33,001 bases of DNA from Candidatus Omnitrophota bacterium (GCA_903882345.1 CAIRWO010000149.1:1-33001); one strand, 5' to 3'. Counted from the stretch's first letter, positions 3,939 to 32,491 are shown. Notes: generated by a model not told the origin, from the letters alone. A program made the numbers and translations.

Positions 3939-5290
3939 AGATAGCTATTTGCGCATCAGAAGTAGTGCCCTTTGCCAAGACCGGAGGCCTGGCAGATGTA
4001 ACCGGCGCCCTGCCGTTTACCTTGGAAGCGCTTGGCCACGAAGTGATCATTATCATGCCCGGCTATAAACAGATCCCTGATAAAAAATCCGTGATCGGTA
4101 AAAATATCCGGGTTTATTTTATCGAAAACGATGCCTATTTCGGCCGCGACGGCCTTTACGGAGATAAAAAAGGCGATTATAAAGATAACCTAAAAAGATT
4201 TTCTTATTATTGTAAAGAAAGCCTCAAACTGCTGAAAGAAATCGGCTTTACCCCCGATATTATACATTGCCATGACTGGCAATCGGCGCTGATCCCGGTT
4301 TATATGAAAACAATATATGCCAACGATCCTTTTTATCGCGGAGTAAAAACAGTATTCACCATACATAATCTGGGTTATCAGGGATTATTTCCCAAGGAGG
4401 AATTTCCCGAGTTGGGGCTTGATTGGAAATATTTTGACGTAGATACGCTGGAATTTTTTGGCAGGGTCAATCTTTTGAAAGGCGGGATTGTCTTTTCAGA
4501 CCTGATCAATACCGTGAGCCCGACTTATAGTAAAGAGATACAAACCAAGGAACTTGGTTTTGGCCTGGAGGGTGTCCTTACTAAGAGGCGTAACCGGCTT
4601 TTTGGGGTCTTAAACGGCATTGACTATTCGATCTGGAATCCGGCAACCGATAAGATCATCCCTGCTGGTTATTCTTTATCGGACATGAACGGTAAAATGG
4701 AAGACAAAAAACAGCTGCAGCAGCTTTGCGGACTGCCTTTAAATAAAGATATTCCATTGCTGGGGATCGTTTCTCGCCTGGCTGAAGCAAAAGGGTTTGA
4801 TCTGTTAGCGCAGATAATGGATACACTCTGCAAGATGGATCTGCAGATCGTAATATTAGGTACAGGCGATTTAAAATATCATAAACTTTTGTCTGATGTC
4901 GCAAAAAAATATTCCCGGGTTATGTCTTTGCAGCTTAAATTCGACGATGCGCTGGCGCATAAAATATACGCGGGCGCGGATATTTTTCTTATGCCTTCCA
5001 GTTACGAACCCTGCGGCCTTGGGCAGTTGATAAGTTTAAGATACGCCACGATACCTGTCGTGTTTAAGACGGGGGGACTGGCCGATACGGTAAACGCTAG
5101 CCACGGTTTTGTTTTTAAGCGCTACAAAAAAGAAGATTTAATGCATTCGTTAAAAAGTGCGCTGAAGGCATTCAGCGATAAGGATAAATGGAACAAATTA
5201 ATGGTTAACGCGATGAAGTGCGATTTTTCCTGGGAAGAATCGGCAAGGGAATATGTCCGTTTGTATGAAGAAGCAGGTAAGCCTGAATAA
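3935..5290 (+). CDS. glgA: Glycogen/starch synthase (GT5)
   Basis: The N-terminus MKIAICASEVVPFAKTGGLADV carries the KTGGL motif. The C-terminus has PSxYEPCGL and GGLADTV. An ATGA overlap joins it to the polA stop. Confidence 0.9.
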   Translation: MKIAICASEVVPFAKTGGLADVTGALPFTLEALGHEVIIIMPGYKQIPDKKSVIGKNIRVYFIENDAYFGRDGLYGDKKGDYKDNLKRFSYYCKESLKLLKEIGFTPDIIHCHDWQSALIPVYMKTIYANDPFYRGVKTVFTIHNLGYQGLFPKEEFPELGLDWKYFDVDTLEFFGRVNLLKGGIVFSDLINTVSPTYSKEIQTKELGFGLEGVLTKRRNRLFGVLNGIDYSIWNPATDKIIPAGYSLSDMNGKMEDKKQLQQLCGLPLNKDIPLLGIVSRLAEAKGFDLLAQIMDTLCKMDLQIVILGTGDLKYHKLLSDVAKKYSRVMSLQLKFDDALAHKIYAGADIFLMPSSYEPCGLGQLISLRYATIPVVFKTGGLADTVNASHGFVFKRYKKEDLMHSLKSALKAFSDKDKWNKLMVNAMKCDFSWEESAREYVRLYEEAGKPE

Positions 5291-5879
5291 AAAGATAGTG
5301 CTGGGTATAACCGGCGGGTTCGGCACCGGCAAGAGCACAGTAGCCGGATATTTCCGGCGTTTTGGCGCCAAGGTAGTTGACGCGGATAAGATCGTCCATG
5401 ACCTGATTAAGCCCGGCTCAAGTGTATACAAAAAGATCATTACCGGCTTTGGCAGGGAAATGCTTAAAAAGGACAGAAGCATTGACCGGGCCAGGTTAGC
5501 GCGGTTGGTATTCAGCGATCGCAGGCTCCTGGACAAATTAAACAGGATTATCCATCCGCAAGTCATAAAGATAATGAAGAAAGAGATCGCTTCAGCCCGG
5601 GGAAAAATCGTCGTCCTGGACGTGCCTTTGCTTTTTGAGGCGGGGCTTAAGCGGCTGGCGGATAAAGTAGTTGTTGTAACGGCAAGCAGGGAAATTCAGC
5701 TTCGGCGTATTTTTAAAAAAACCTCTCTTCTTGAAAAGGATATTTTAATGCGGATAAAGGCGCAGCTGCCTCTATCCACTAAGGTCCGCAGGGCGGATTT
5801 TGTAATAGATAATAATAGAACGCAAAACTGGACAAAAAAACAAGTTGTGAATTTAAGGAGGATGTTGTGGAAAAATTAG
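5253..5879 (+). CDS. coaE: Dephospho-CoA kinase
   Basis: It has the P-loop [12 protein letters not shown] and IIHPQV, typical of CoaE. The start could instead be the ATG at 5265; both candidate starts overlap the glgA 3' end. Confidence 0.85.
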
Positions 5880-7123
5880 ACATTGGAAAACTTAAACAAA
5901 TGAAAATTACCGAGCTCAACAAGCTGGCAAAAGAATTGAATGTCAACGGCATGAGCGGGCTTAAGAAGCAGGACCTGATATTTAAGATCTTGCAGGGGCA
6001 GGCAGAAAAAGAAGGGCTGATGTTCGGGGAAGGGATATTGGAGATCCTTCCGGAAGGGTTCGGTTTTTTAAGGAGCCCGAACTACAATTATCTGCCTTGT
6101 CCGGATGACATATACATTTCTCCGTCGCAGATCAGGAAATTCGACCTGCGCACGGGAGACACGGTGAGCGGTGAAATCCGTCCGCCTAAAGAGGGAGAAA
6201 AATATTTTGCCCTGCTTAAGGTGCAGGCGGTGAATTTTGAAAATCCCGAAGATGTAAAAGAGAAAATACTCTTTGATAATCTTACGCCGGTTTATCCGCG
6301 GGAACACTTTGTCCTAGAGACTAACCCTAAAGAGGTATCGATGCGCATAATGGACCTTTTAGCGCCTATCGGTAAGGGCCAGCGCGGCCTGATCGTCGCC
6401 CAGCCCTACAGCGGTAAAACCGTGCTGCTGCAGAAGATCGCCAACGCCATCACCACCAATCAACCCGACACGATACTGATCGTGCTCTTGATCGATGAGC
6501 GGCCGGAGGAAGTCACGGATATGCAGCGTAACGTAAAAGGCGAAGTAATATCCTCTACCTTTGACGAGCCGCCGGAAAGGCACGTCCAGGTTGCGGAAAT
6601 CGTCCTTGAGAAGGCTAAGCGGCTTGTCGAGCATAAGAGGGACGTCGTAGTACTTCTGGATAGCATCACGCGCCTGGCGCGCGCCTATAACTCCGTTGTG
6701 CCGCACAGCGGCAAGGTATTATCCGGAGGCATAGATTCCAACGCCCTGCAGAAACCCAAACGCTTTTTCGGAGCGGCACGCGCGATCGAAGAAGGCGGCA
6801 GCTTGACGATTATTGCCACCGCACTCGTAGATACGGGAAGCCGGATGGACGAAGTAATTTTTGAAGAGTTTAAGGGCACAGGTAACATGGAACTGCAGCT
6901 GGACAGGAATCTCTTCCAGCGCAGGATCTATCCGGCCATCGACATAAAACGTTCCAATACCCGTCATGAAGAATTGCTGCTTAAGCCGGACATTCTTCAG
7001 AAGGCCTGGATTTTGCGCAAGGTGCTTAATGAACTAAGTAACGTTGAGGCAATGGAGCTTTTGATCGAGAAACTGGCTAAGACAAAGAACAACGAGGAGT
7101 TTTTAGGGAGCATGAACCAATAG
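5867..7123 (+). CDS. rho: Transcription termination factor Rho
   Basis: A GTG start follows AAGGAGG. The product has an N-terminal Rho_N domain ([11 protein letters not shown]), an RNA-binding domain (GFGFLR), Walker A (GKT) and a RecA-like ATPase core. Confidence 0.95.
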
Positions 7124-7125
7124 AG

Positions 7126-7172
7126 ACACCCGAACCTATAGGATGGTTCGGTGTGCGTTTACTACGCAAGGA
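7126..7172 (+). repeat. Two-hairpin intercistronic element, copy A (rho-rpmE spacer)
   Basis: Hairpin 1 is ACACCCGAACC-TATAGGAT-GGTTCGGTGT. Hairpin 2 is TGCGT-TTACT-ACGCA. The element ends in AAGGA, which is the rpmE SD. The first 31 nt are identical to the copy at 24144. Confidence 0.75.
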
Positions 7173-7180
7173 GGTTTCAA

Positions 7181-7381
7181 ATGAAAGACAAGATTCATCC
7201 CAAGTATCAGGACTGTGTGATTGTTTGCGCATGCGGCAATACCATACATACCCGTTCGACAAAACCGAATATCCGGGTTGAGGTGTGCTCTAAATGCCAT
7301 CCTTTTTTCAGCGGTAAGCAAAAGTTCGTTGATTCCGCCGGTAGGGTAGATAAATTTATCAAGAAATACGCAAAGAAATAA
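7181..7381 (+). CDS. rpmE: 50S ribosomal protein L31 (Zn-ribbon type)
   Basis: MKDKIHPKY... carries CxC and CxxC cysteine pairs. The ATG at 7181 is preceded by AAGGAGG. The track start at 7151 (GTG) lies inside the repeat element and is unlikely. Confidence 0.9.
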
Positions 7382-12869: not shown

Positions 12870-13511
12870 ATGGCAAAAGTAAAAATATGCGGCATAACCA
12901 ATTCAGAAGATGCGTTGTTTTCAGCAGGATCCGGCTGCGATGCGCTGGGTTTTGTTTTTTATAAAAAGAGCCCCCGTTATATCCCCCCTGAAAAAGCCGC
13001 ACAAATAATCAAAGGATTACCTGCGGAGCTGATCAAGATCGGCGTATTCGTCAATTCCCGGGAAAAGACTATAAGACGGATCGCGCAATTGTGCGGGCTT
13101 GATACCTTACAGTTTCACGGCTCAGAATCTCCGGAATTCTGCCGCAGGTTCAAAGACAAAAAAATTATCAAGGCGTTCAGGGTAAAAGATAGATCGAGCC
13201 TGAAAAGTATCTTAAAATACAAAGTCTTTGCTTTCCTTTTTGACACTTTTAGCCGATCCCGCATCGGCGGCACGGGGAAAAAATTTAATTGGGAACTGGT
13301 TAGGCACATTGACGGCATAACGCGGCCGATATTCTTATCCGGCGGCTTAAATGAAAAAAATGTCAGAGGCGCGATCAAGGCGGTGCATCCGGATTGGGTT
13401 GACGCGTCCAGCTCTCTGGAGGTTTCTCCCGGCAGGAAAGACCAGAATAAAGTAAAAAAGTTTATCGTCGCCGCGAAGAAAGGTAAGAGCAAGAGGACCG
13501 TTTCCTTATAA
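12870..13511 (+). CDS. trpF: Phosphoribosylanthranilate isomerase
   Basis: KVKICGIT, LGFVFYKKSPRYI and LSGGL are present. The last six sense codons plus the stop lie within the left arm of the 19-bp inverted repeat. Confidence 0.85.
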   Translation: MAKVKICGITNSEDALFSAGSGCDALGFVFYKKSPRYIPPEKAAQIIKGLPAELIKIGVFVNSREKTIRRIAQLCGLDTLQFHGSESPEFCRRFKDKKIIKAFRVKDRSSLKSILKYKVFAFLFDTFSRSRIGGTGKKFNWELVRHIDGITRPIFLSGGLNEKNVRGAIKAVHPDWVDASSSLEVSPGRKDQNKVKKFIVAAKKGKSKRTVSL

Positions 13512-13660
13512 CTGTATACGTAGTAATGAGTTTTGTAGGAACTGTCCCTGGGGGACATTTCTAAAATAATCTTTTTATGTTAGTAGAGTAACTTAATAGG
13601 GAGGGGGGACAGTTCCATAGGAACTTATTGTTATTTAATGGGTTATAAGGAAACGGTCCT
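13494..13660. repeat. Perfect 19-bp inverted repeats (AGGACCGTTTCCTTATAAC at 13494-13512, its complement at 13642-13660) enclosing a 129-nt AT-rich core with nested inverted repeats
   Basis: I read this directly from the sequence. The nested 11-bp pair is GGAACTGTCCC (13538-13548) and GGGACAGTTCC (13606-13616). Competing local hairpins are TGTCCC-TGG-GGGACA and GTTCC-ATA-GGAAC. Confidence 0.7.
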
Positions 13661-23181: not shown

Positions 23182-23691
23182 ATGAAAGACAACAGAGTTA
23201 TATATAAAGGCAGGCTGATCAGCCTGGCGGCAAGGATCGTAAGGCTGCCGAATAAATTTATTGCGCACATTGAGGTAATCACGCATCCGGGCGCAGCGCT
23301 GGTGGTCCCTTTTTTAAGCAGGGATAAAATAATCCTTCTGCGTCAGTTACGGCCGGTGATCAGGGCTTATTTATATGAGCTGCCGGCCGGTACGCTTAAA
23401 AAGGATGAGACTGTGCTTTCCTGCGGCCGCAGGGAAATCGTGGAAGAGACCGGTTACCGCGCAAAAAAGTTTACCCGGCTGGGCTATATTTATCCTGTGC
23501 CGGGGTATTCTACGGAAAAAATCGTCATCTTTAAGGCAGAAGGCCTGTCTAAGGAAAATGCGCAGCTAGATAAGGATGAAATTATCGAGAGCCTTATCGT
23601 TACGCGCAAACAGTTGAAGGCGATGTTCGCGAAAGGAAAAATTGTCGATGCAAAGACTATCTGTGCGCTTACGCTGTGCGGGTGGCTGTAA
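23182..23691 (+). CDS. NUDIX hydrolase (ADP-ribose pyrophosphatase-like)
   Basis: It has the Nudix box LPAGTLKKDETVLSCGRREIVEETGY. Confidence 0.8.
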   Translation: MKDNRVIYKGRLISLAARIVRLPNKFIAHIEVITHPGAALVVPFLSRDKIILLRQLRPVIRAYLYELPAGTLKKDETVLSCGRREIVEETGYRAKKFTRLGYIYPVPGYSTEKIVIFKAEGLSKENAQLDKDEIIESLIVTRKQLKAMFAKGKIVDAKTICALTLCGWL

Positions 23692-25396
23692 AAACATACT
23701 GATCCTCGTCGTACTGACTTATTTTTTCTTTTGTTTTGGTAACGGCATAATCAGCCTTAGCAATCCGGATGAAGTTTTTTATGCCGGCACGGCAAAAGAG
23801 ATGATCAACCAGCACAGCTGGATGACGCCTTATTTATTCGGCCAGCCGCAATTTGAAAAGCCGGTATTTTTATACTGGATGCTGCGGATCGCCTTTATGA
23901 TTTTCGGTATTGGAAGTTTTGCCGGCCGTTTCTTTCCGGCAGTATTCGCTTCCCTGGGGGTAGTTGCGGTTTACCTTTTCTCGCTGATAGCATTCAAGGA
24001 TGAAAAGAAGGCATTCTTTACCGGCTTGGTTTTGATGTCCTCAGGGCTCTATATCGGGCTGGCGCGGACAATTTTTACGGATATGATTTTTTCCGTATTT
24101 ATCCTTTTATCGCTGCTAGCGTTTTTCTGGGGGTATGCGCGGGCACCCGAACCTATAGGATGGTTCGGTGTGCGCTTGTTGCGCAAGGAAAAGAAGGCCG
24201 GCGGTATCCTCTTATTTTTTGTTTTTTCCGCTTTAGCGGTCTTGACCAAGGGGCCGCTGGGATTTTTTATCCCGTTTATGGCGATAGTGATTTTTCTTGC
24301 GCTAAAGAAAGAGCTGAAATTTATCTTTTCGAAAGCAACGCTGTGGGGTCTGTTGGTTTTTATTCTGATCGCTTTTCCCTGGTACCTGCTGATGATCAAA
24401 AAATACGGCTCTAGCTTTACCCACGAGTTTTTTTATAATGACCACATCCGCCGGATATTCGAGGCAGAACATAGTTCAAACGACACTTGGCATTTTTATC
24501 CTTTCGCAATGGTTTGGGCGATGTTCCCCTGGAGCGCGTTTGTAGTTATTTCCCTGCTCGGCCTGTATAAGCATATAAGGAAGGCAGGGGAGCCAGTCTA
24601 CCTTTTTCTTGCCTCTTGGATTGCCGCAGTCTTTCTTATTTTTCAACCCTGCCATTCTAAGCTGGTAAGCTACATCTTCCCGATGTTTCCCGCGCTGGCC
24701 ATACTTAGCGCCGACCTTATTTATCGCGGGGCAGCGCAAAATCAAAGGCCACGCCTTGTATTTTCCGCTTTTTTGCTCACGGTATTGGCGCTTGTTGTTT
24801 CATACGTTGGCTTGGCCGTGGGTTCGGTTTTATTTTCCCGCTATATTACGACGTATTTGCCGAACAAGCTGCCGGTTTATATTTTATTAGCTCTGCTTTT
24901 TATCTTGGTCATACTGTGTTCGGTTTTTATCGCGTGCCGCAGGCTGCTGAAAACGGCCTGCGTATTGATGCTTTTTATCCCCGTGCTTTTTTCTATCGTG
25001 CCCCAGGTCAGCAAATATATCGATCCCTACCTTTCATCGCGTGATATCTGCCGCTACCTTCAGGATAATTATAAGCTCGACAATACGATATTGGTCTCTA
25101 AATTTTTTACCCGCGGGGTAAGATATTATACGGAAAAAAAAGTAGCGGTAATCGACATCCCGGGAAATGGTTTTTTTAGCCCGCACCCCATAGCTTTTCT
25201 TAATTCCGACAGTAAGGTCCTGGATCTTTTACGCCGGCAGCCGGTTACATATTGCGTCCTTAAGAAAACGGCGCTACAGGATATCCAACGTTTCAGCAAT
25301 GAATTTGACTATAAGGTCTTGAAGGTCATCGGCAACGAGTATTTAGTCAGGATCAAGCCGAGAACATTGACAATAGCGGGAAGGGGAGTAGAATAA
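23642..25396 (+). CDS. Glycosyltransferase family 39 (ArnT / PMT_2-like lipid-linked sugar transferase)
   Basis: PDEVFYAGTAKEMINQHSWMTPYLFGQPQFEKPVFLYW resembles the ArnT N-terminal loop. The product has more than 10 TM segments. The start is TTG 23642 or ATG 23648, both overlapping the Nudix gene. It contains repeat copy B in frame. Confidence 0.8.
   Translation: MSMQRLSVRLRCAGGCKNILILVVLTYFFFCFGNGIISLSNPDEVFYAGTAKEMINQHSWMTPYLFGQPQFEKPVFLYWMLRIAFMIFGIGSFAGRFFPAVFASLGVVAVYLFSLIAFKDEKKAFFTGLVLMSSGLYIGLARTIFTDMIFSVFILLSLLAFFWGYARAPEPIGWFGVRLLRKEKKAGGILLFFVFSALAVLTKGPLGFFIPFMAIVIFLALKKELKFIFSKATLWGLLVFILIAFPWYLLMIKKYGSSFTHEFFYNDHIRRIFEAEHSSNDTWHFYPFAMVWAMFPWSAFVVISLLGLYKHIRKAGEPVYLFLASWIAAVFLIFQPCHSKLVSYIFPMFPALAILSADLIYRGAAQNQRPRLVFSAFLLTVLALVVSYVGLAVGSVLFSRYITTYLPNKLPVYILLALLFILVILCSVFIACRRLLKTACVLMLFIPVLFSIVPQVSKYIDPYLSSRDICRYLQDNYKLDNTILVSKFFTRGVRYYTEKKVAVIDIPGNGFFSPHPIAFLNSDSKVLDLLRRQPVTYCVLKKTALQDIQRFSNEFDYKVLKVIGNEYLVRIKPRTLTIAGRGVE
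24143..24189 (+). repeat. Two-hairpin element, copy B, embedded in frame in the GT39 CDS
   Basis: CACCCGAACCTATAGGATGGTTCGGTGTGCG is identical to copy A. Hairpin 2 is TGCGC-TTGTT-GCGCA, followed by AAGGA. The element translates as ...[16 protein letters not shown].... Confidence 0.75.
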
Positions 25397-30251: not shown

Positions 30252-30283
30252 ACCAGAGAAAGTGTTCTCTGGTTTTCTTTTAG
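30252..30283 (+). terminator. Intrinsic terminator (expression platform of the riboswitch)
   Basis: A 9-bp stem ACCAGAGAA / TTCTCTGGT with loop AGTG is followed by TTTCTTTT. Confidence 0.75.
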
Positions 30284-30320
30284 TGAAAAAGACGCCAATC
30301 CATCCTATAGGATTGGGTGT
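30274..30320 (-). repeat. Two-hairpin element, copy E, inverted orientation
   Basis: The minus strand reads ACACCCAATCC-TATAGGAT-GGATTGGCGT, then CTTTT-TCACT-AAAAG. The loop and the ACACCC are conserved and the 5-bp variable stem is fully swapped. There is no AAGGA and no downstream gene on the minus strand. Confidence 0.5.
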
Positions 30321-30350: not shown

Positions 30351-30440
30351 ATGAAAGAAAAAGTATATTGGATGGGAGTTATTGTTTGCGCTATACTAAT
30401 ACTATATCTTTCTATTAGTTTTTGCCTGATTCGCCATTAA
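30351..30440 (+). CDS. Small hydrophobic ORF (29 aa), KdpF-like: MKEKVYWMGVIVCAILILYLSISFCLIRH
   Basis: It is a single TM helix and shares the pattern YW-G-I----L--YL-I with the adjacent kdpF product. It has no clear SD and falls below the length cutoff of the ORF track. Confidence 0.4.
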   Translation: MKEKVYWMGVIVCAILILYLSISFCLIRH

Positions 30441-30476: not shown

Positions 30477-30557
30477 ATGGACATTTTAATAATAGCAATA
30501 ATACTTATTATTACACTAGCTTCTTTTGCTTTTATTACCCTTTGCTCTAAGGTCTAA
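30477..30557 (+). CDS. Small hydrophobic ORF (26 aa): MDILIIAIILIITLASFAFITLCSKV
   Basis: GAGG lies 5 nt upstream of the ATG. The product is a single TM helix. The final A of its TAA stop is the first base of repeat copy C. Confidence 0.45.
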   Translation: MDILIIAIILIITLASFAFITLCSKV

Positions 30558-30603
30558 CACCCGAACCTATCGGATGGTTCGGTGTCCATAATCTATGGAA
30601 GGA
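30557..30603 (+). repeat. Two-hairpin element, copy C (spacer before kdpF)
   Basis: Hairpin 1 is ACACCCGAACC-TATCGGAT-GGTTCGGTGT. Hairpin 2 is TCCATA-ATC-TATGGA. The element ends in AAGGA, 8 nt before the kdpF ATG. Confidence 0.75.
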
Positions 30604-30611
30604 ATCTTATA

Positions 30612-30701
30612 ATGATTATTTATTGGATCGGCGGAATTATTTCTTTTCTCCTGTTTATTTATCTCTTAATAGCCCTTTTAAAACCGGAGATTTTCTCGTG
30701 A
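30612..30701 (+). CDS. kdpF: K+-transporting ATPase subunit F (29 aa): MIIYWIGGIISFLLFIYLLIALLKPEIFS
   Basis: Its size, single TM helix and ...YLLxALLxPExF ending are typical of KdpF. Its stop overlaps the kdpA GTG (GTGA). Confidence 0.75.
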   Translation: MIIYWIGGIISFLLFIYLLIALLKPEIFS

Positions 30702-32443
30702 ATTTGAACAATTTTATCCAAATATCTATTTATTTAGCGACATTGCTTCTTTTGGTTAAGCCATTGGGCACTTATATGGCGCGAGTCTATGAAGGCAAGC
30801 CTAGCGGTTTAAATGTTTGGTTCGGCTGGTTAGAGAAGCTGATCTATCGGCTTATAGGAACTAATTCTCAACAAGAGATGTCTTGGAAGACCTATGCAGT
30901 GGCAGCGATGTTGTTCAATATAATAGGTATAATTATAGTATATGCCATTCAGCGCCTTCAAGCGCACCTTCCTTTAAATCCGATGTCTATGCCGGCAGTA
31001 AGCGCAGACCTTTCGTTCAATACGGCTGTCAGTTTTGCTACCAATACAAACTGGCAGAGTTATGGCGGAGAGACTACCTTAAGTTATTTTACCCAGATGA
31101 TAGGTTTAACCGTGCAAAATTTTGTTTCCGCGGCAACAGGAATGGCGGTTTTGGTGGCTTCTATCAGAGGATTTATCCAAAAGCAGGCAGAAACGATCGG
31201 CAATTTCTGGGTAGACTTGGTCAGGTCAACGCTTTATATCCTGCTGCCGCTTTCTTTAATTCTGTCCTTAGTATTAGTATCACAGGGCGTGGTGCAAACT
31301 TTTAAGCCAAGCGCAAAGGTTGATCTGTTGCAATCGACAAAAGACTCTAGCGGGAAAATAATTTCCCAGCAGGAAATTGCTTTGGGCCCGGCTGCATCGC
31401 AGATAGCTATTAAACAGTTAGGGACAAACGGAGGAGGGTTCTTTAACGTTAATTCTGCTCATCCTTTCGAGAATCCTACGCCTTTATCAAACTTTCTAGA
31501 AGTGCTGGCGATAGTCCTGATAGGTGCTGCTTTATGTTATACGTTCGGCTATATGGTTAAGGATAAACGCCAGGGGTGGGCATTATTGATTGCTATGCTG
31601 ATTATTTTTATTCCCTGTCTTTGGACGTGTGTCCATTTTGAGCAAAAAGGCAACCCTTTGTTTAAGAACCTTGGCGTTGATCAAAGTTATTCGGCAACGC
31701 AACCAGGCGGGAACATGGAAGGAAAAGAAGCGCGTTTCGGAATCGCGAATTCCGCCATCTGGGCCGCAGCTACTACTGCGGCTTCCAACGGTTCAGTGAA
31801 TTCAATGCATGATTCCTATATGCCTCTGGGTGGTTTAATTCCCCTGTGGCTTATACAATTAGGCGAAGTTGTTTTTGGAGGAGTAGGTTCAGGACTTTAT
31901 GGTATGCTTGCGTTTGTGATTGTCGCTGTTTTTATTTCCGGGCTGATGATCGGCAGGACTCCCGAATACCTGGGAAAGAAAATCGAAAGCTTTGAAATGA
32001 AGATGGCGGCGCTTATTCTTTTGATCCCGCATATATGTGTGCTTTTAGGAACAGCAATCGCGGTTGTCTTACCCAAAGCAAAGGCGGCAATCTTAAACCC
32101 CGGAGCGCATGGTTTTAGCGAAGTGCTGTATGCCTTTACTTCTGCCGGAAACAATAACGGCAGCGCGTTTGCCGGTTTATCAAGTAATACATTTTTTTAT
32201 AATATTGCCTTAGGTTTAGCAATGTTTTTTTCAAGATACTGGCTTATTATACCAATGCTGGCGATTGCCGGTTCGCTTTCTAAGAAAAAGATCGTGCCGG
32301 CGAGCGTAGGAACGCTGCCTACGCATACGCCGCTTTTTATCATATTTTTAGTGATGGTTGTTTTGATTGTCGGAGCGCTTACATTTTTTCCGGCCTTGTC
32401 TTTGGGGCCGATTGTCGAACATCTTATGTTACGCGGGGGTTAA
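30698..32443 (+). CDS. kdpA: K+-transporting ATPase subunit A
   Basis: VKPLGTYMARVYEG, NWQSYGGE, LGTNGGGFF and TSAGNNNGSAFAG are KdpA selectivity-filter-like regions. I prefer the GTG at 30698 over the track ATG at 30623, which runs through kdpF. Confidence 0.92.
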   Translation: MNLNNFIQISIYLATLLLLVKPLGTYMARVYEGKPSGLNVWFGWLEKLIYRLIGTNSQQEMSWKTYAVAAMLFNIIGIIIVYAIQRLQAHLPLNPMSMPAVSADLSFNTAVSFATNTNWQSYGGETTLSYFTQMIGLTVQNFVSAATGMAVLVASIRGFIQKQAETIGNFWVDLVRSTLYILLPLSLILSLVLVSQGVVQTFKPSAKVDLLQSTKDSSGKIISQQEIALGPAASQIAIKQLGTNGGGFFNVNSAHPFENPTPLSNFLEVLAIVLIGAALCYTFGYMVKDKRQGWALLIAMLIIFIPCLWTCVHFEQKGNPLFKNLGVDQSYSATQPGGNMEGKEARFGIANSAIWAAATTAASNGSVNSMHDSYMPLGGLIPLWLIQLGEVVFGGVGSGLYGMLAFVIVAVFISGLMIGRTPEYLGKKIESFEMKMAALILLIPHICVLLGTAIAVVLPKAKAAILNPGAHGFSEVLYAFTSAGNNNGSAFAGLSSNTFFYNIALGLAMFFSRYWLIIPMLAIAGSLSKKKIVPASVGTLPTHTPLFIIFLVMVVLIVGALTFFPALSLGPIVEHLMLRGG

Positions 32444-32491
32444 CACCCCGCGCTTATCGGATTTGCGCGGGTGTGCCCTTCTGGGCAAGGA
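32443..32491 (+). repeat. Two-hairpin element, copy D (kdpA-kdpB spacer), the most diverged copy
   Basis: Hairpin 1 is ACACCCCGCGC-TTATCGGATTT-GCGCGGGTGT. Hairpin 2 is TGCCC-TTCT-GGGCA. The element ends in AAGGA, 6 nt before the kdpB ATG, and starts on the last A of the kdpA TAA. Confidence 0.65.

Follow-up and report, generated by a model that had tools for sequence, protein, structure and literature searches.

The five short sequences listed in Table 1 are probably copies of a mobile DNA element, miniature and non-autonomous, which is specific to, and widespread in, the Omnitrophota, and not a dedicated regulatory RNA. They were studied in a stretch of 33,001 nucleotides from a Candidatus Omnitrophota bacterium, which as a whole is called the window here. 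The Omnitrophota are uncultivated and often ultra-small bacteria with compact genomes. The element is regarded as mobile DNA because insertions are polymorphic among close relatives, because copies are found in coding sequences, in a riboswitch, nested in one another and in tandem, and because copies are homogeneous within a genome. A previous reading made from the sequence only had argued from covariation and placement for a function at the RNA level and had held a DNA-level REP to be less likely. This conclusion is not supported by the present analysis, as all five sites are insertion-polymorphic, no strand signature is seen, and copies also occur within genes, within a riboswitch, nested and antisense; the behaviour is that of mobile DNA of a REP/RPE-like kind.

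A covariance model was built from 34 copies (33 of other genomes and the window copy E) and run over the whole window with filters off. Exactly five copies were returned with 37.7-56.1 bits, the next match having 10.9 bits, which agrees with the five places given by the sequence-only reading. The pattern CACCCN5TATNGGATN5GGYGT, which describes hairpin 1, has four matches in the window against 0.00 expected in shuffles, and copy D, with a loop 3 nt longer, escapes it. The genes of the window are housekeeping genes only, and the best matches of its GT39, KdpA and Rho proteins carry the name Omnitrophota. The surroundings of the copies include the rho-rpmE-prfA and kdpFABC operons.

Table 1. Copies of the element in the 33,001-nt window, their parts, and the neighbouring riboswitch
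Feature	Position	Strand	Bits	Sequence and context
Copy A	7126-7170	+	52.0	between rho stop (TAG 7121-7123) and rpmE SD
Copy A, hairpin 1	7126-7154	+		ACACC-C-GAACC / loop TATAGGAT / GGTTC-GGTGT
Copy A, hairpin 2	7155-7167	+		GCGT TTACT ACGC
Copy A, 3' flank	7168-7174	+		AAGGAGG; rpmE ATG at 7181
Copy B	24143-24187	+	49.0	in frame within GT39/PMT_2 glycosyltransferase gene, ORF 23642-25396, 584 aa
Copy B, hairpin 1	24143-24171	+
Copy B, hairpin 2	24172-24184	+		GCGC TTGTT GCGC, then AAGGAAAAG
Copy C	30557-30601	+	49.9	between 26-aa hydrophobic small ORF (30477-30557) and kdpF (ATG 30612)
Copy C, hairpin 1	30557-30585	+
Copy C, hairpin 2	30586-30598	+		CCATA ATC TATGG, then AAGGAAT
Copy D	32443-32488	+	37.7	between kdpA stop (TAA 32441-32443) and kdpB (ATG 32498)
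Copy D, hairpin 1	32443-32474	+		CGCGC/GCGCG, 11-nt loop TTATCGGATTT
Copy D, hairpin 2	32475-32486	+		GCCC TTCT GGGC, then AAGGAC
Copy E	30275-30320	-	56.1	antisense to kdp leader, directly 3' of c-di-AMP riboswitch terminator U-tract
Copy E, hairpin 1	30320-30292	-		AATCC/GGATT, GGCGT
Copy E, hairpin 2	30291-30277	-		CTTTT TCACT AAAAG, then A-run (complement of terminator U-tract)
c-di-AMP riboswitch RF00379	30103-30251	+	83.9	kdp operon; E 2.4e-18 (Rfam gathering, whole window)
Terminator U-tract of the riboswitch	~30254-30283			insertion target of copy E

The idea that the copies fill gaps between a stop and a start codon applies to A, C and D, and fails for B, which lies inside an open reading frame; E is antisense to the kdp leader. 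Likewise the terminal AAGGA is found in A, C and D and is replaced by AAAAG-AAAACC in E. As had been stated, the ATG of rpmE, kdpF or kdpB follows 6-8 nt after the end of A, C and D, respectively, and the first base of both C and D is the final A of the preceding TAA, which for C is the stop codon of the small ORF (30555-30557). The possibility that copy D alters the C-terminus of KdpA was rejected; the protein has 581 aa in all relatives, with its last three residues naturally variable, and copy D therefore lies after the kdpA stop. In the peptide encoded around copy B the residues YA are followed by 14 residues and then by RKEKK. The basal stem of copy E has an A.C mismatch on its own strand, which is a G.U on the transcribed strand. 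Two small hydrophobic ORFs (30351-30440 and 30477-30557; MKEKVYWMGVIVCAILILYLSISFCLIRH and MDILIIAIILIITLASFAFITLCSKV) are placed between the riboswitch and kdpF (30612-30701). The second is kept in the relatives L115, L116, L119 and L120, always with a KV-stop end, and the first is also found in L115. Elsewhere in the window (13494-13660) the spacer between a trpF-like and a TPR gene forms a near-perfect long hairpin of ~170 nt with a folding energy of -74.9 kcal/mol (z = -8.7 versus shuffles). Neither a second copy, in the ~1 Mb of sequence fetched, nor an Rfam match was found for it.

The element has ~42-46 nt and is composed of two hairpins with no spacer between them, followed on the 3' side by an A and then further purines. 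Hairpin 1 consists of ACACC, a bulged C, a free stem of 5 bp, the loop TATMGGAT, the complementary free stem and GGTGT. Hairpin 2 is a stem of 4-5 bp of free sequence with a pyrimidine loop YTNYT of 4-5 nt. The 5' end of the element is (A/G)CACCC, with a weak T-[A/T] preference before it. The search pattern left the five free pairs of hairpin 1 unconstrained; in the set of copies defined by it they are 95% paired and show 249 double-sided changes versus 63 in shuffles, and the pairing drops to 32-39% once the partners are slid. In the 146 model-defined copies both helices taken together are 96% paired with 522 double-sided changes versus 121 in shuffles, and the stems, loops and compensatory differences originally read off the five copies proved correct. 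Moreover the conserved basal stem has compensated variants (AUACC/GGUAU, ACGCC/GGCGU and ACCCC/GGGGU). Because covariation is present in both stems and the basal variants are compensated too, both hairpins are real and under constraint. This pairing constraint is without a visible RNA-specific signature: G.U pairs number 30 versus 25 A.C mismatches when the terminal pair is excluded, and neither strand folds better than the other.

The kdp and rho-rpmE loci of relatives (L115, L116, L119, L120, L125 and L127) were compared with those of the window, to which their KdpA is 88-91% and their Rho 93-95% identical. Between rho and rpmE (site A) the element is present in the window and, as a different and degenerate copy of a D-like subfamily, in L125, and the site is empty in L127 (TAA-AGGAGATAAAA-ATG). 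The site between the small ORF and kdpF (site C) is filled in the window and in L115 and L116, these two having the free stem GGCCA/TGGCC, and is empty in L119 (TAG-GGGGATTATCGC-ATG) and L120 (TAG-GAGGTATATCGC-ATG). Between kdpA and kdpB (site D) a copy is found in the window, the P0122 strain and L116, and none in L115 (TAA-TT-ATG), in L119, where the genes overlap, or in L120; the insertion thus replaces an overlap or a spacer of 2-8 nt by 54 nt of hairpins. The antisense copy in the kdp leader (site E) is shared by the window, L119 and L120 and is missing from L115 and L116. The three kdp sites are therefore filled or empty independently among five genomes whose KdpA is ~90% identical, which indicates that gain and loss are frequent. 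In a further rho-rpmE spacer (L126, 2458-2566) an unrelated insert of 109 nt, rich in GCGTTC/GAACGC repeats, stands in place of the element, and this junction may attract small insertions in general.

Copy B gives the same picture within a gene. An insert of 42 nt (~24139-24180) is missing from an 88%-identical GT39 orthologue in L113, and its 14 residues are missing from all other GT39 homologues aligned as well. At the DNA level the empty site reads TATGC followed directly by GCGCAAAGAAAAG, the filled site has 42 nt more, and the junction is ambiguous by only 3 nt. A 99%-identical GT39 protein (P0001, two ENA samples) contains the residues of copy B and 15 more at the place encoded by the loop of hairpin 1. 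These 15 residues carry the peptide pattern of a further copy, translated in another frame and nested in the hairpin 1 loop of B.

The placement of the copies follows a simple rule. Some 56 of the 146 copies (~38%) have an SD-preceded start codon 5-19 nt downstream, and 33 of those are also close after a stop codon. According to crude gene calls, copies between co-directional genes are sense in 59 cases versus 21 antisense, so that the preferred position and orientation proposed from five copies are borne out when tabulated. Over all copies purines account for 60-80% of the bases at positions +1 to +6 of the 3' flank, versus ~50% upstream. An SD or a purine run is already present at every empty site that was compared, and at filled sites it directly follows the element, as can be seen between kdpA and kdpB, where the empty TAG-GAGTTTTT-ATG of L120 corresponds to the filled TAA-element-TAGGAGTTTCT-ATG of L116. 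As the SD or purine run is there before insertion, the element does not carry the downstream SD, contrary to what had been supposed. In antisense copies the 3' A-run together with its hairpin is the reverse complement of an intrinsic terminator that belongs to the opposite-strand gene, and copies inside genes precede Lys/Glu codons. One rule, insertion 5' of a purine run on the strand of the element, accounts for the placement: the filling of stop-to-start gaps, the adjacency to the SD, the sense bias and the antisense class all follow from it. No fixed target-site duplication was detected, flanking 2-4-mers (k = 2-4, nine offset combinations) not exceeding shuffled pairings; in the filled/empty comparisons the junction ambiguity is only 2-3 nt, with inconsistent boundaries.

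In other genomes copies are found in places that would not be expected of a regulatory RNA. The gene encoding Lnt has the element in frame, with a 16-aa gap exactly there in the alignment to E. coli Lnt (PDB), and in-frame copies are also present in RsmD, MtnA-like and PLD-like genes. In five MAGs the terminal loop of P6 of the FMN riboswitch holds the element, with free stems that differ. These copies are in L055 (7457-7652, minus strand), L099, L068, L042 and L048, sometimes with extra degenerate or inverted copies, and the FMN aptamer of L055 still scores 81 bits despite its 74-nt insert. Other copies are nested in the hairpin 1 loop of a resident copy, often with members of one subfamily with the stem GCACC(T/C)TGCC, and in all cases of a split hairpin 1 that were found a 45-nt copy is nested between the halves, which gives loops of 51-55 nt. 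Head-to-tail tandem arrays have a period of 42-46, and inverted pairs occur in L019, L029, L070 and L017. Upstream duplicates resembling hairpin 2 were considered as long target duplications and rejected, as the 3' arm of another hairpin 1 precedes them and they belong to tandem copies.

Two other arrangements were observed around the copies. A second and larger composite repeat of ~330 nt has inverted ends ATGAGCGC(A/T)TAACTTAC and a long hairpin CCCCCCACCACTTTT...AAAGTGGTGGGGGG. Its first stem-loop contains a single copy of the 45-nt element; the composite repeat has no Rfam match and is found in L091 (~4900-5900, two copies flanking rpsG), L002, L030, L043, L042 (2349) and L007. In three MAGs an orthologous gene has copies on both sides (L021 ~1900-2508, L053 1495-2050, L057 2068-2605). 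The flanking copies are all antisense to this gene in L053 and L057, and only the upstream ones are in L021. This ORF was considered as a candidate transposase and rejected, its product being a small ECF-type sigma factor (Sigma70_r2 + r4).

A scan of 185,579 species-representative genomes, with a pattern in which the 5-bp stems were left free, gave at least 112 stretches. Among the matches listed, true copies are present in ~55 species genomes, nearly all labelled Candidatus Omnitrophota or Omnitrophica, and they are confined to the Omnitrophota; in ~1 Mb of loci around copies 146 + 21 copies were counted. Six pattern matches outside the Omnitrophota have no complementary stems and were rejected by the covariance model, and four matches in IMG/VR viral contigs are all due to chance. 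Some copy-bearing MAGs have other labels: L099 (DATJPV01) is a 'Patescibacteria group' genome, L006, L010, L027 and others are 'uncultured Planctomycetales', and L092 and L106 are given as 'bacterium'. The KdpA or Rho of MAGs labelled 'Planctomycetales' or 'Patescibacteria group' is ~90% identical to that of the window (DATJPV01 by Rho, CAYHBB01 by KdpA), which places them in the same lineage. Such MAGs look like Omnitrophota whose labels are outdated or mis-mapped. Rfam 15 has no family for the element (gathering threshold on the whole window, where the c-di-AMP riboswitch is the only match; E<=10 on 7090-7200 around copy A, 0 matches), in agreement with the early impression that it is no named motif, and literature searches on Omnitrophota and Omnitrophica found no description of it.

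The copies of one genome often resemble each other. The free stem GAACC/GGTTC is common to copies A, B and C of the window, and in other genomes hairpins 1 and 2 are shared across unrelated genes, for example at four MHHD01 loci and at five loci with AAGC-TTGT-GCTT. A free stem or hairpin 2 shared at unrelated genes points to a recent common origin within the genome and not to independent conservation. Moreover orthologous sites hold different subfamilies in different genomes. The subfamily with the stem GCACC(T/C)TGCC...GGCAAGTG(T/C) is almost only found nested in the hairpin 1 loop of other copies (L027 3433-3478, L029 7294-7339, L036 3464-3508, L086 1528-1573 and the protein P0001), and this nesting hints at a target choice specific to the subfamily.

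It can be argued that the element is a cis-acting RNA selected by the host, whose intercistronic hairpins bind a protein, set processing or stability, or tune translation by pairing of the hairpin 2 loop with the SD. We consider this unlikely. The strong covariation of both helices, the share of copies followed at once by an SD and start codon, the 59:21 sense bias, a loop invariant across the phylum, and the occupancy kept at site C and in the FMN P6 loop would all be expected of such an RNA. Pyrimidines make up 86% of the hairpin 2 loop, which in some copies is able to pair with AGGAG. Moreover start-proximal copies have a GGA in the hairpin 1 loop and another at the SD, which together resemble a paired CsrA-type site and are counted here in its favour; tblastn gave no CsrA match in the ~1 Mb of loci around copies, a search that is uninformative for a single-copy gene. 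Against this stand the presence or absence of the element among close relatives at every window site and the copies that are in frame in coding sequences, antisense behind terminators or nested in one another. The downstream genes are mutually unrelated, G.U is not favoured over A.C, and stem integrity is no better in start-proximal than in other copies (p = 0.23). There is also no Rfam family.

The same holds for the folding predictions. Partition-function folding of 46 start-proximal copies gave a mean unpaired probability of 0.60 for the SD (0.84 in A, 0.84 in C and 0.50 in D). General occlusion of the SD, which had been among the proposed functions, and an RNA thermometer were therefore rejected, the SD being mostly predicted unpaired, with occlusion in a minority of copies only. 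An alternative helix between the pyrimidine loop of hairpin 2 and the SD is likewise predicted in a minority of copies only. A role of that loop as a guide to its own 3' flank was also rejected, since the complementarity is not above a between-copy null, and the absence of such copy-specific complementarity counts against the cis-acting RNA too. An added effect at the RNA level on some operons, through mRNA stability or coupling, is possible.

It is still less probable that the element spreads like a SINE, that is, as an RNA of both hairpins with a purine- or A-rich tail, copied by target-primed reverse transcription at pyrimidine-rich nicks of the other strand (CCTCCTT or TTTTTT). The 3' flank is indeed always purine- or A-rich, there is no consistent target duplication, and the element is transcribed wherever it lies within operons. 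In copies B and E the identity of element and target reaches into the 3' arm of hairpin 2, an argument from 3' homology that comes from two sites only. However no reverse transcriptase is linked to the copies and no master gene was identified, antisense copies located behind terminators may not be transcribed at all, and we know of no precedent for bacterial SINE-like elements. A protein-binding site on double-stranded DNA (the core site of a recombinase as an 11-8-10 inverted repeat, a nucleoid-protein site or an uptake signal) has very little to recommend it, for although two inverted arms of 10-11 bp around an 8-bp core recall tyrosine-recombinase sites, with outer arms and core conserved, five non-conserved arm positions are complementary within a copy and free between copies, which indicates intrastrand pairing, the bulged C is asymmetric, and hairpin 2 has no conserved sequence whatsoever.

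If the five sequences are taken as copies of a mobile DNA element, a trans-acting enzyme would work on the folded single strand and recognise hairpin 1, which has a bulge and whose loop and base are conserved. Lineages in which the pairing was lost would cease to propagate, and covariation would result. In compact genomes the extragenic purine runs would mainly be SDs right after stop codons, giving sense copies in stop-to-start gaps, and the complements of terminator U-tracts would serve as purine runs for the antisense copies behind terminators. Within genes Lys/Glu codons would offer such runs, giving insertions that are in frame and free of stops. When transcribed, the element would add two stable hairpins to the mRNA and leave the pre-existing SD exposed, so that mRNA stability or translation would be affected in a secondary way, if at all.

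As for the mobilising enzyme, our best guess, and a tentative one made by analogy, is a single-strand DNA transposase of the HUH/RAYT-like type, because the REP/RAYT and IS200/IS605 systems are also without duplications and have strand-specific targeting. When 2,696 open frames were searched by phmmer with RayT of E. coli, nothing was found at E<=10, a weak negative as the frames came from ~1 Mb in 8-kb pieces around copies. Equally weak is the negative for a parent IS bounded by the halves of hairpin 1, none enclosing 1-3 kb in the fetched loci.

An alternative cause, selection at the level of the host, is conceivable for the loop and basal stem conserved across the phylum, for the occupancy kept at site C in three genomes and at the FMN P6 in five MAGs, and for the 3:1 sense bias. 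A bolder version, which we hold to be rather improbable, would make this a class of elements guided by structure that home to the junction of stop codon and SD and recognise the SD-like purine tract there, perhaps by pairing of the pyrimidine-rich, anti-SD-like hairpin 2 loop or the 3' tail, perhaps through an RNA intermediate, and that were perhaps co-opted throughout the Omnitrophota as modular intercistronic spacers reshaping the operon mRNA. If targeting of this junction is true, it would be a natural, tool-like system that places structured RNA modules exactly between cistrons.

Five copies in a 33-kb window imply that the element is a sizeable and overlooked component of Omnitrophota genomes. 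It will break assemblies, inflate riboswitch loops and shift gene calls through false N-terminal extensions and protein inserts of 14-16 aa. It is also a warning for the discovery of RNA motifs, as covariation together with a fixed position relative to start codons can come from the needs of a mobile hairpin and its choice of target. The presence or absence of copies would moreover serve as a fine-scale strain marker for Omnitrophota populations.

Among known systems, the REP/BIME and REPIN-RAYT repeats of Enterobacteria and Pseudomonas share many traits with this element. Both are short imperfect palindromes with a bulge (~30-45 nt), numerous and dispersed, with tandem and inverted clusters, no target duplication and long-term persistence in a lineage; both are homogeneous within a genome and different between genomes, and both become mRNA hairpins when transcribed. 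However the 5' GTAG which is the hallmark of REPs is absent from the Omnitrophota element on either strand. Its loop, in contrast to those of REPs, is conserved, its first hairpin is fused with another one of free sequence, and the sequence is conserved at the level of the phylum. Moreover REPs are placed at the 3' ends of operons, whereas this element is found 5' of an SD or purine run and also in frame in genes. In the latter respect it resembles the RPE of Rickettsia, which are likewise palindromic selfish repeats lying in frame in protein genes and in RNA genes and tolerated by the host product. In-frame insertion with the host ORF retained is seen here in the GT39, Lnt, RsmD, MtnA-like and PLD-like copies. 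RPEs are nevertheless 100-150 bp long and limited to Rickettsia, whereas the Omnitrophota element has ~45 nt and is mostly intercistronic.

The Correia/NEMIS repeats of Neisseria, ERIC/IRU of Yersinia and BOX/RUP of pneumococci are likewise non-autonomous, often intercistronic and co-transcribed, with hairpins able to change mRNA stability according to orientation. These bacterial MITEs differ in their length of at least 100-150 bp, their terminal inverted repeats and their defined target duplications (e.g. TA), whereas here there is no duplication and no parent IS was found. With IS200/IS605 and PATEs the element has in common hairpin ends, the lack of a duplication, insertion beside a short sequence of one strand and a strand-specific targeting that leads to an orientation bias. 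In IS200/IS605, however, 10-19 nt separate the cleavage sites from two hairpins that resemble each other, and insertion requires a strict tetra- or pentanucleotide, whereas the Omnitrophota element has two dissimilar hairpins and only a purine run as target, and no TnpA was identified. Integron attC sites are also imperfect palindromes with extrahelical bases, conserved outer boxes, a variable and compensated inner stem and a location between stop and start. They are nevertheless 55-140 nt long, have R/L boxes (GTTRRRY), form cassette arrays by intI and do not occur in housekeeping operons, coding sequences or riboswitches; the element has none of the R''/L''-L'/R' boxes, and its surroundings are housekeeping operons. 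Because it has no GTAG, no duplication, the wrong size and no attC boxes, the element is filed apart from REP/REPIN, RPE, MITEs and attC. The family is a previously undescribed miniature palindromic mobile repeat, REP/RPE-like with unusual targeting, and it is set apart by its size of ~45 nt, its fused second hairpin of free sequence, its phylum-wide loop, its targeting of the stop/SD junction and its nesting in its own loop.
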